From the IMG/VR virus record IMGVR_UViG_2671180360_000006: a DNA stretch of 21,446 nucleotides. One strand, given 5' to 3'. Source of the stretch: a virus (Duplodnaviria > Heunggongvirae > Uroviricota > Caudoviricetes). The position numbers were made by a program. Shown here in pieces: positions 15,001 to 18,000 of this stretch; positions within the stretch are counted from its first letter, which is position 1, and each line of letters begins with the position of its first letter.

Positions 15001-18000
15001 AGAATCTGCCCCACCCCTGACGGGTCAATACCGATATGGTCCAGTAACTCAGCCTCATGAATGCGACGCACATATTCCGCCACTTCCGCCGTGTCATCCC
15101 CGACACGCCGGACAATGGTCATATCTCCACAGGCAACAAGATCCTGAAACCGGGACGCCTCGCTCTTCCGTCGGACCACCGCGGTTTCATGCGCCCAGGC
15201 ATGGCCCCAGCCCAGCCATTCGCGGGTCTCCCGGTCACGCCCAATCACATACATCCCCAGCAGATCATCCAGCCCTCCGCCGTCAATCCCCACCGTCACC
15301 ACATCAGCACGACGCAGGATATCGTCCAGGCTGACGCGCCTGCCCTGCTCTTCCCAGAAATCCGCGCCCGCCCAGCGGTCAGAACGCAGGGCAAGACCGA
15401 TTTCCACATTGGCGTGTTTTGACATGAAGCCACGAAATGCTTCCTCACCAGCCTCCCGGGCTTTACGGTACTCCCGGTACAGAAAGGCCTCATCCACTGA
15501 ATAGCCGAGATTCGGATTGACCATGGCGAGGTTTTCCATCAGCAGGTTAGCCCCGCTTTCCACCATTTCAGGAGGGTGTTCAAATATCACCGGCAGAAAG
15601 TGCGGATCATGAATTTTGCCGTCGCGCACATCCCGGGCGTACTGCAGTTTCTGTCTGAACACCCCGGCGGGCGGTTCATTCGACTGGGTGGTCGTATACA
15701 CCACAAACCCTTCCGGGCGGGAGGCAAGGCCGCCTATGGCTTCACGTAACATGTCCTCCGCCTTGCACTGCTTGCCAAACAGCCACAACTCATCAATCAG
15801 CGTACCCACGGACTTGATACCGGACACCGTATTCGGATCGGCTGCCACCACCTTCAGGGTGGTGTCCGTCACCCGGTGGGTGATGGTCCGGATATGGGTC
15901 TGTACCTGGCAGAGGTCATCCAGATCATCGTCACGTCGTACCATATCCCGGGCAGGGTTGAAGGCGTTGGCCGCCACCTCCACAGTCGGGGCCAGAATCG
16001 TGTAACCCGCCGCCTGCCGCCAGTTCAGTAACAGTGCAGTCATCATGATCCCCGCGGCCAGCGTGGACTTCGAGTTTTTCTTGGGGATAAGGATAAAAAC
16101 TTCCTTGATATGGCGTACACCGGTCTGCGCATCGTAGGAGCCAAACAGGGCCGCCACCAGGTCAAACACCCACGGTGCACAGGACTCCCCGAACGTAGGG
16201 CTACCAGGTGCATCCACAATCCGCAGTTGTTTAAAAATCGCCAGGGCATGTGCGGCCTGCTCCGGATAAATCGGAGCCGGAATAATCGACAGCCCCTTTT
16301 TCAGGCGCTCTGCCCAGTCCGGGCAGGCCGTGCTCCACACAGGTATCATCCGTTGCCCTCATTATCATTATTCACCACCAGGCGGGGTGGTGGTGGCACC
16401 GCAAAACGGTTAGCCGCTTTTTTCGCGGCGTCACCTTTTGCCGATTTTTTACCGGCATCCCCTTTTTTGTGGTGCGTGAACTGCGCCAGCTTATAAGCCG
16501 CATCCAGCGCCAGCCTGGGGTCGGTATTAATGTTCTCCACCAGAAGACGCCCCATCGCTTTCACCGGATCGGGAAGACCATCCTCCATATATTCAATACC
16601 ATGAGATATCACCGCGGGCGGAGGCATCTCCGGATTGTTTTCGTCCGGCTGTGGTATTGCAGCCGCCTCACGGCGACGGGGTTTATCCTCCTGCTCTGAT
16701 TTTTTCTGCCGGTAAACAGGAACCTCATCCACCTCCACCGTCTCGCATTGTTTACGGGCTATAAACGCAAGCACCTCCGGATCTTTTGCCAGCTGCGAGC
16801 CTTTAACCCTGGCGGTCTTCGCCGAATAACCAGCGGCAATGGCTGACGCTGTTTTGTTTTTCCCGGACATGAGCGCCAGCGCAAATTTTCGTTTTTGCGT
16901 TGTCAGCACAGCCTCCTCCCGGGTCCAGAACGCACTCAGCCGGGTATGGTTCAGCCCATTTTTCCCGGCGTCTCATGCCGCAAATGTTAACTGCTGCCTG
17001 GTTAACATTTGCTGAAAAAGCCAGTTAACATTTTTTCCGCACAACAAACTGAATAATAAAGATAAAAACCGCAAAAATGCCCGGACAGCCAGTTAACATG
17101 TTAACTGCCCTGAAACGGGAATTTTTTCTCTGCGTGAGAGGGGGGGCGGTGTCCAAAGCGATCTTTTTTTACGCCGGATGATACCCCCCCCGGGTCGGGT
17201 TACAGTCCGATGATGTCGTCCGCTCTGCCACTACCTCCGGACACCTCCGGCAGCGTCGGGTCTGGCATACCACTCGCCGCTTCACGAGCAGACTTTTGTC
17301 GATGGCATTCGGTACAGAGCGTCCAGAGATTCGTCTCCTCATTACCACCACCGAACTGAAGTGCAATGCGGTGCTCAAGTTCACTGTCACAAAGGTCAAC
17401 CACACGCCCACAGAGACAGCACTGTCCGGCATCCCTCAGCCAGATACGACGCTTGAGGGAAACCCGGGCACTACCACTGACCCGACGCTGTTCACCCTTC
17501 AGGACATTCACCCGCCGGGTGTTCAGAGTTTTGATTCTGCCCGGTAACGTACGAAGCACAGCCATGTAAAATCCTCTCCATATAGCTTGTCACCAGAGGA
17601 AAGAAAATGTCATCGAAAAACCGGACCCGCAGAACCACAATCCGCAATATCCGTTTCCCCAATCACATGATTGAACAGATCAATATCGCCCTTGAACATA
17701 AAGGTTCCGGTAACTTTTCAGCGTGGGTTATTGAAGCCTGCAGGAGAAGGCTGGCAACAGATGCAACGCATCTGCGTCCGGCCAGCATGACAAATAACGA
17801 GAAATGAACGTTCGGTTACAGGAGCAGGTACCCACTGTCCTCCAACAATATTTCATCTTCATACCCGGCGGAACAAGACTTACCCAGCCGGAATGTACAG
17901 AATAACAACAGAGTGATAATTAATTTCTGATGAAATAATCAGGGTGCAGAAGGACTAAAGATAAACGTTTTCTTCACGCCTTTACGCGGCCTGTCCTTCT

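Follow-up and report, generated by a model that had tools for sequence, protein, structure and literature searches.

A predicted Arc/Mnt-like ribbon-helix-helix protein of the YlcI/YnfO family, encoded opposite the late operon of a lambdoid prophage

What might a small, basic protein do that is encoded alone on the strand opposite to the late genes of a prophage? This question is raised by an open reading frame (ORF) of 66 codons in a 21,446-nucleotide (nt) stretch of viral DNA (IMG/VR record IMGVR_UViG_2671180360_000006, Caudoviricetes; the whole stretch is called the window below). A preliminary description of this DNA had pointed to an orphan ribbon-helix-helix (RHH) gene divergent from an HNH endonuclease gene, and had considered regulation of the neighbouring genes as well as a split or degenerate toxin-antitoxin pair. 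We find that the ORF is a genuine gene and a member of the YlcI/YnfO family (DUF3950), and that its product is very probably an RHH protein of the Arc/Mnt-like type; for its function we tentatively propose a small repressor made in the lysogen. The observation as a whole is confirmed and its interpretation partly supported, as the RHH and orphan parts stand while those of an antitoxin and of a neighbour regulator do not.

Family membership and spread of the gene

The product (MSSKNRTRRTTIRNIRFPNHMIEQINIALEHKGSGNFSAWVIEACRRRLATDATHLRPASMTNNEK, 66 aa) carries 12 K/R against 5 D/E residues, i.e. a net charge of +7 counted on the translation, and the ORF is preceded by its own Shine-Dalgarno sequence (AGAGGA), so that the small basic protein described previously is indeed what the DNA encodes. 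Short ORFs are plentiful in the window and 66 codons alone could occur by chance; it is the family-model scores together with the substitution pattern that identify this ORF as a real gene. The protein scores 71.7 bits with Pfam PF13132 DUF3950 (E=4.6e-20; cut-off 25) and 35.3 bits with NCBIfam NF041551 YlcI_YnfO_N (cut-off 30), matches PHROG 949 with E=2.7e-32, and contains the family core IRFP...I...NFSAWV(I/L)(E/D)AC. Over the first 50 codons, 26 of the 34 synonymous sites differ from the homologue in phage lambda, compared with only 6 of the 116 non-synonymous sites; this pattern shows a protein under purifying selection. In alignments reaching down to 34% identity the columns I15, R16, I25, F37, W40, V41 and C45 are invariant and F17 is nearly so, and the key residues are kept across Enterobacterales and Pasteurella. 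The first 50 residues of the window protein share 85-87% identity with the lambda/DLP12-type homologue. Past about residue 50 the tails of the window, lambda, YnfO and other types are entirely different, and most Escherichia coli copies resemble the gene at the DNA level no further than nt 135-155; the mosaic junctions thus coincide with the end of the RHH domain.

A DNA search found copies in 4182 of 5426 complete E. coli genomes (77%), at up to 12 places per genome, and essentially all of the listed E. coli matches are annotated as YlcI/YnfO. The K-12 members are ylcI in the DLP12 prophage and ynfO in the Qin prophage. The best public match to the window region is E. coli O103 ML775 (99.8% over 1.3 kb), in which a 100% identical coding sequence (CDS; WP_027663612.1 in NZ_CP193495) is annotated as 'YlcI/YnfO family protein'. 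The gene is, then, an already known and annotated member of a common prophage family without an assigned function: a literature search returned no paper that assigns one to the YlcI/YnfO family, which is counted among the uncharacterised K-12 genes (PMC11551758), and ylcI has been reported to be transcribed, within a convergent ybcW-ylcI excludon.

Phage lambda itself carries an intact homologue of 64 codons at complement(48109..48303), opposite to the late transcript and 199 bp from the right cos end, which has no annotation in RefSeq NC_001416. The 'orf64' of the lambda literature was considered as this homologue and rejected, as it is lambdap73, located between Q and S; the CRISPR interference data on the essentiality of 'orf64' therefore do not cover the YlcI homologue. 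At the protein level the family is narrow, with 101 cluster representatives among 1.84 billion, many of which are frameshifted reads of lambda control DNA. Assemblies that bear the names of Streptomyces, Cohnella, Pedobacter, Nanosynbacter, Staphylococcus and other taxa contain right-end lambda DNA, mostly as contigs of ~3.5 kb or as contigs that end at the lambda cos. Evidently they are contaminated by control DNA, from which many of the frameshifted 'YlcI' proteins in protein databases derive.

The ribbon-helix-helix assignment

The Pfam DUF3950 model spans just residues 21-50 of the protein, and the case for an RHH fold comes from structure prediction and profile comparison. An AlphaFold2 monomer built on 17 diverse family members (moderate confidence, predicted local distance difference test (pLDDT) 70) shows a basic segment followed by a helix at residues 19-32, the four-residue turn GSGN and a second helix at residues 37-55, both helices being modelled at pLDDT 77-85 and the tail at <65. 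The model resembles solved RHH proteins in structure. With hhalign, the DUF3950 profile aligned to a comparator profile made of Arc, Mnt and AmrZ segments and of the Arc-like and Mnt-like ORFs that the window itself contains (see below) with P=1.5e-4 and a probability of 51%, the ribbon and the first helix being in register (IRNIRFPNHMIEQI over KFNLRFPDGMRDAI); comparisons of DUF3950 with RHH proteins as single sequences gave P=0.0018 and 0.0093. In the profile alignment N14 and R16 of the window protein fall on N11 and R13 of Arc. Structural work on the Arc-operator complex places Arc N11 and R13 among the base-contacting ribbon residues, and it is this correspondence that leads us to regard the protein as very probably RHH and specifically Arc/Mnt-like.

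Several results weigh against the assignment. The ribbon segment (residues 12-18) is not modelled as a strand in the moderate-confidence monomer, as would be expected if this strand pairs only in a dimer. The Foldseek E-values are not significant, HMMER searches of the PDB, whether started from the protein or from the family profile, gave chance matches only and no RHH protein, and a relaxed Pfam scan of the 17 family members found no RHH family, not even Arc (PF03869) at E<=10. The search with hidden Markov models that had been suggested for this ORF is accordingly positive for DUF3950 and YlcI_YnfO and negative, as far as HMMER is concerned, for RHH families of the CopG/Arc/MetJ type. The RHH prediction is supported by the profile comparison and by the structural resemblance; HMMER alone finds no link.

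Position, satellite relatives and possible roles

The window gene lies in the late region of an E. coli lambdoid prophage whose late genes are all on the minus strand, the order being lysozyme, Rz, Rha-family gene, TonB_C lipoprotein, YlcI-type gene (plus strand), HNH, terS, terL, portal, capsid and tail (coordinates in Table 1). Lambdoid phages conserve the YlcI-type gene as an accessory gene, and two things about it are constant: it runs against the late operon, and it sits at the upstream edge of the packaging module. Its 41-nt spacing to the packaging HNH gene, from which it diverges as was noted at the outset, is the same in the window, ML775, CP027459 and the Shiga toxin phages EH2201 and 1717. 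In lambda and in DLP12-like and Qin-like prophages it has the 199-bp distance to cos given above and hence diverges from Nu1. The lambda-type and HNH-type contexts have wholly different upstream DNA but identical ribbon residues.

Relatives outside this setting are informative about a possible mode of action. When one genome per species was scanned, 80 loci came up, including many cases of lambda contamination, and we analysed the 39 that fall outside the E. coli lambdoid group: 22 are accompanied by a P4-type integrase, 15 by AlpA and 15 by a primase. The gene order primase(-) ... DUF3950(+) ... alpA(-) int(-) never varies, the DUF3950 gene being opposite to all three others. The Pasteurella phage/satellite Pmp7 (OR544138) has the same layout, its DUF3950 ORF (59 aa, ATG at 4853, end at 5032, plus strand) not being annotated; a 224-aa 'transcriptional repressor' CDS annotated at 4435-5109 (minus strand) overlaps it antisense and looks largely spurious, and an int-alpA RNA (Rfam RF02996) lies at 7069-7135 of the same element. 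Among integrase-bearing elements of ~8-9 kb, two longer contigs were examined, and in both the DUF3950 gene is the sole called gene on its strand. In Citrobacter and Enterobacter contigs of this size the DUF3950 protein is 175 aa long and has an additional domain at its C-terminus (P0199 cluster, 48 members).

In the satellites, 2-4 copies of a 12-19 nt repeat lie within 110 bp upstream of the DUF3950 gene (arrays 40-110 bp from the start); their distance from the start codon is fixed, as are their spacings of 23-24 and 46-47 bp. Most of these repeats are GGTG-N6-CAC; the subfamily with an IRFE ribbon has instead the palindrome TGGTA-N2-TACCA at 33-bp spacing. The type of motif tracks the protein subfamily (IRFP vs IRFE), and the repeat centre may covary with ribbon residue 14. 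Taken singly, each array is only modestly significant against shuffled sequences, yet the arrangement is regular across ~20 loci. Because of this regularity and of the motif switch with subfamily, the arrays look like the operators through which an autoregulating repressor would act on a divergent promoter.

For the window gene, a small Arc/Mnt-like RHH repressor, transcribed against the late operon and made in the lysogen, is the reading that we put forward, as a whole tentatively and short of probable. The gene, its family, its conserved position and orientation and the lack of a toxin partner are established, and an RHH-like fold is supported; from these we infer dimerisation, DNA binding, timing, repression and target as follows. 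A dimer would insert its two-stranded ribbon (TTIRNIRFP) into the major groove of DNA, as other RHH proteins do. A promoter of its own would drive the gene against the direction of the late operon; a TAAAAT hexamer at 17567-17572 in the divergent spacer is a possible -10 element (with a weak -35). Since strong late transcription converges on the gene, the protein would be made when the late genes are off, i.e. in the lysogen. There it would repress a promoter close by, either that of its own gene or one from which the divergent HNH-terS-terL genes would be read, or both, and its gene would fall silent once Q-dependent late transcription runs through it. Mnt guards Pant of P22 in this manner.

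A number of negative results speak against such a repressor at this locus. A consensus scan predicted no sigma-70 promoter for the YlcI gene and no internal one before HNH. No direct or inverted repeats or palindromes were found in 17400-17615 or 17800-17945, neither GGTG-N6-CAC nor TGGTA-N2-TACCA was found near the gene, and GTGTGTAGACA-like sites occur there at chance level only. The satellite arrays, for their part, could bind another protein or serve replication. The lambda-type upstream region offers just an inverted repeat of 8-13 nt, 70-100 bp upstream. The consensus scan likewise predicted no terminator for the YlcI gene.

Among the alternatives, a role in packaging survives best, although we consider it unlikely: the RHH protein might contact cos or DNA close to it, or cooperate with the small terminase, and so modulate the recognition or cleavage of cos as an accessory or anti-hijack factor, e.g. 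by shielding the prophage cos or by competing with satellites that redirect packaging. The constant adjacency to the packaging module fits such a role, and so does the spacer between terS and HNH. This spacer (16980-17200) contains five CAGTTAACAT(TT) copies in both orientations, followed by G/C-rich runs at 17138-17156 and 17184-17199; judged from its sequence it is probably the cos region, with terS-binding repeats and cleavage site, of an HK97-type HNH-dependent packaging system. Gene fusions point in the same direction. Two distant family members, P0211 and P0197, consist of a DUF3950 domain fused to a terS-type N-terminal helix-turn-helix (HTH), P0197 being an independent and more distant case of the same architecture. 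P0211 (120 aa) is common in E. coli, where it is located in the chromosomes; searches of IMG/VR and of the phage collection did not find it. In CP027459.1 (region 3713563-3725925) it is encoded by a helper-embedded satellite that comprises int, alpA, the fusion gene, a 60-aa DUF3950 gene, a D5-type primase, its own terS and a capsid gene. This satellite sits in the terL of a prophage which has the YlcI gene and is 95% identical to window positions 16075-17817 (junction at about window position 16075), and the HTH of P0211 is 64-66% identical to the helper terS. The helper terS of CP027459 looks disrupted (a 61-aa fragment).

The fusion is a hint that the DNA-binding modules of DUF3950 and of terS can serve a common process. 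A shuffling of DNA-binding domains, such as has been described for the 'Bro zones' of satellites (bioRxiv 10.1101/2022.07.18.500453), could explain it just as well; this preprint on helper-embedded satellites and phage-inducible chromosomal islands (PICIs) does not mention DUF3950. Further points count against a packaging role. The gene is opposite to the packaging genes, so that co-expression is unlikely; the upstream DNA differs between the two contexts in spite of identical ribbon residues; and most satellite homologues adjoin replication rather than packaging genes. The Rpp packaging redirectors of satellites are winged-helix proteins (PMC9026076), and were rejected as relatives of DUF3950 for this reason.

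Somewhat less likely still is a wider scheme in which DUF3950 proteins are the repressors of Gram-negative PICI/P4-like and helper-embedded satellites and the phage copies cross-talk with their satellite paralogues. If this were true, the satellite proteins would bind the GGTG-N6-CAC or TGGTA-N2-TACCA arrays before replication operons, and the phage-borne copies, including those of the window and of lambda, would be part of one regulatory system with them and could gate the expression or use of the packaging module in lysogens. Cross-talk could proceed through DNA sites that both recognise, through mixed dimers or through the DUF3950-terS(HTH) fusion, which would make the family a player in the helper-satellite conflict over packaging.

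Local regulation of the accessory genes next to it (those for the TonB_C lipoprotein, the Rha-family protein or both) is an improbable role for the protein. RHH proteins often regulate adjacent genes, and proximity is what this reading has in its favour. However, of the 4182 E. coli genomes that carry a homologue, only 413 have the TonB_C lipoprotein context, and other genes lie downstream in the Stx2 phages EH2201 and 1717 and in the lambda, DLP12 and Qin types; because the downstream neighbours vary in this way, dedicated regulation of the lipoprotein or Rha gene, as raised in the preliminary description, is not borne out. Moreover, the lipoprotein gene is convergent, and its promoter would lie beyond its far end (18280), >470 bp from the YlcI gene. 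In lambda the slot filled here by the TonB_C lipoprotein is held by bor. The label 'Rz-like spanin' that phrog_1267 gives to this lipoprotein looks mistaken; a separate Rz gene is present at 19368-19817.

A functionless ORF hitch-hiking at a lambdoid mosaic boundary would account for recombination junctions that lie exactly at the end of the conserved domain, for the lack of a known phenotype and for the place of the family among the uncharacterised K-12 genes (PMC11551758), but it is very improbable in view of the strong protein constraint seen against lambda and of the key residues retained from Enterobacterales to Pasteurella.

The least probable reading is that of an antitoxin from a split or degenerate type II toxin-antitoxin pair, which is contradicted by the lack of any partner, remnant or conserved tail. 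As noticed before, there is no toxin-like gene next to the ORF: no toxin-sized co-directional ORF follows, only one of 33 codons without a PHROG family match (probably a chance ORF) and then a convergent gene. At the equivalent position lambda has a 17-codon ORF starting MNIP. Nor did homologous prophages reveal a consistently lost toxin gene downstream. YnfO-type prophages have a DUF1398 gene (YdfO) 42 nt downstream, of which a fused form also exists, and in lambda and DLP12 an opposite-strand ORF lies between the YlcI gene and a DUF1398 gene (YbcV/YdfO type); no DUF1398 remnant was found in the window. No toxin or defence function is known for DUF1398: PADLOC returned no defence model for the window protein, a YdfO-like DUF1398 protein or P0199, and overexpression of YdfO has been reported to protect against oxidative stress (PMC4077768). 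The satellite and small-element homologues have no conserved co-directional partner. An antitoxin would bind its toxin through the C-terminal tail, and the tail past about residue 50 is short (16 aa), predicted with low confidence and unrelated among family members.

Elsewhere in the window, a complete P22 immI-like module (1013-2608) is found among the tail genes, between JAB/NlpC (221-997) and tail protein L (2625-3350). Its Mnt-like ORF is the second opposite-strand RHH gene of the window. No Rfam RNA family was found in the window.

Table 1. Position and basis of the features around the YlcI-type gene and of the immI-like module, in window coordinates
Feature	Position	Strand	Basis or remark
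YlcI/YnfO-family (DUF3950) ORF	17607..17807	+	ATG-TGA, 66 codons; family matches
Predicted RHH core	17634..17771	+	Basic arm and ribbon ~10-18 (TTIRNIRFP), helix A 19-32, GSGNFS turn, helix B 37-55
Variable C-terminal tail, residues 51-66	17757..17804	+	Tails unrelated across the family, pLDDT <65
Shine-Dalgarno sequence AGAGGA	17595-17600	+	7 nt 5' of ATG, from sequence
Divergent spacer between HNH and YlcI start codons, 41 nt	17566..17606	.	Sequence
HNH endonuclease, HK97-type packaging module	17200..17565	-	Pfam HNH, PHROG 589, NZ_CP193495 annotation
CAGTTAACAT(TT) repeats	16982-16993, 17001-17012, 17022-17033, 17090-17099, 17099-17107	both orientations	Repeat scan/sequence
terS	16346-16909	-	Packaging module; Pfam Terminase_2 in module, NZ_CP193495 annotation
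terL	14688-16349	-	Packaging module, HK97-type
33-codon ORF MNVRLQEQVPTVLQQYFIFIPGGTRLTQPECTE	17804..17905	+	ATG overlaps YlcI stop (ATGA)
Lipoprotein with TonB C-terminal domain	17939..18280	-	Pfam TonB_C E=5.8e-15; convergent, 131 nt past YlcI stop
Antirepressor (P22_AR_N/C)	1013-2059	-	immI-like module
Arc-like ORF, 57 aa	2007-2180	-	immI-like module
Mnt-like ORF, 114 aa, divergent	2264-2608	+	Pfam Arc E=1.8e-20

Comparison with known systems

The window gene itself is ordinary, belonging to a family that is present in most complete E. coli genomes, in K-12 and near the cos of lambda. What may be new lies at the level of the family: the Arc-like assignment, the unannotated lambda copy, the placement in satellites together with repeat arrays, and the fusions to a terS HTH. 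In PICI/P4-like satellites the family is a fixed feature, opposite to integrase, AlpA and primase, divergent from the replication operon and with operator-like arrays before the gene. Taken together, the family findings lead to a cheap and concrete hypothesis, i.e. a small repressor with defined candidate operators, which can be tested in lambda or K-12.

RHH antitoxins (ParD, TacA, VapB-RHH, CopA_SO and the C-terminal domain of HicB) differ from the window family, which has no adjacent toxin, no conserved toxin-binding tail and no conserved two-gene operon. With YlcI of DLP12 and YnfO of Qin the window gene shares the motif, the opposite-strand site by the packaging module and the lack of a known function; it differs from them in its tail, in having HNH upstream instead of the lambda-type cos/Nu1 and in having no DUF1398 nearby. 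Its closeness to cos and terS recalls the DNA-binding domain of terS and Rpp, and a DUF3950-terS(HTH) fusion exists in the satellite of a near-identical helper, but its product is a predicted RHH protein as opposed to an HTH (N-terminus of terS) or a winged helix (Rpp), and it is encoded opposite to the packaging genes. Satellite master repressors, such as Stl of the Staphylococcus aureus pathogenicity islands, and the 'Bro/immunity zone' of Gram-negative PICIs and helper-embedded satellites offer a further parallel, as the satellite DUF3950 paralogues lie between alpA and the replication genes, opposite to int, AlpA and primase and behind repeat arrays, as expected of the repressor of an element; the window gene, by contrast, is in a helper-type prophage and has no arrays.

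Mnt and Arc of P22 are compared last. The window protein misses the Pfam Arc model and has no Mnt-like C-terminal tetramerisation domain, no operator was found near its gene, and the divergent gene is a packaging HNH and not an antirepressor. Like Mnt and Arc, however, it is very probably a small phage RHH protein, with a ribbon that can be aligned to theirs (N14/R16 with Arc N11/R13). As with mnt in relation to arc-ant, its gene stands alone on the opposite strand in the late region, divergent from genes that it possibly controls, and a true mnt/arc-ant module of this same geometry is present within the window itself.

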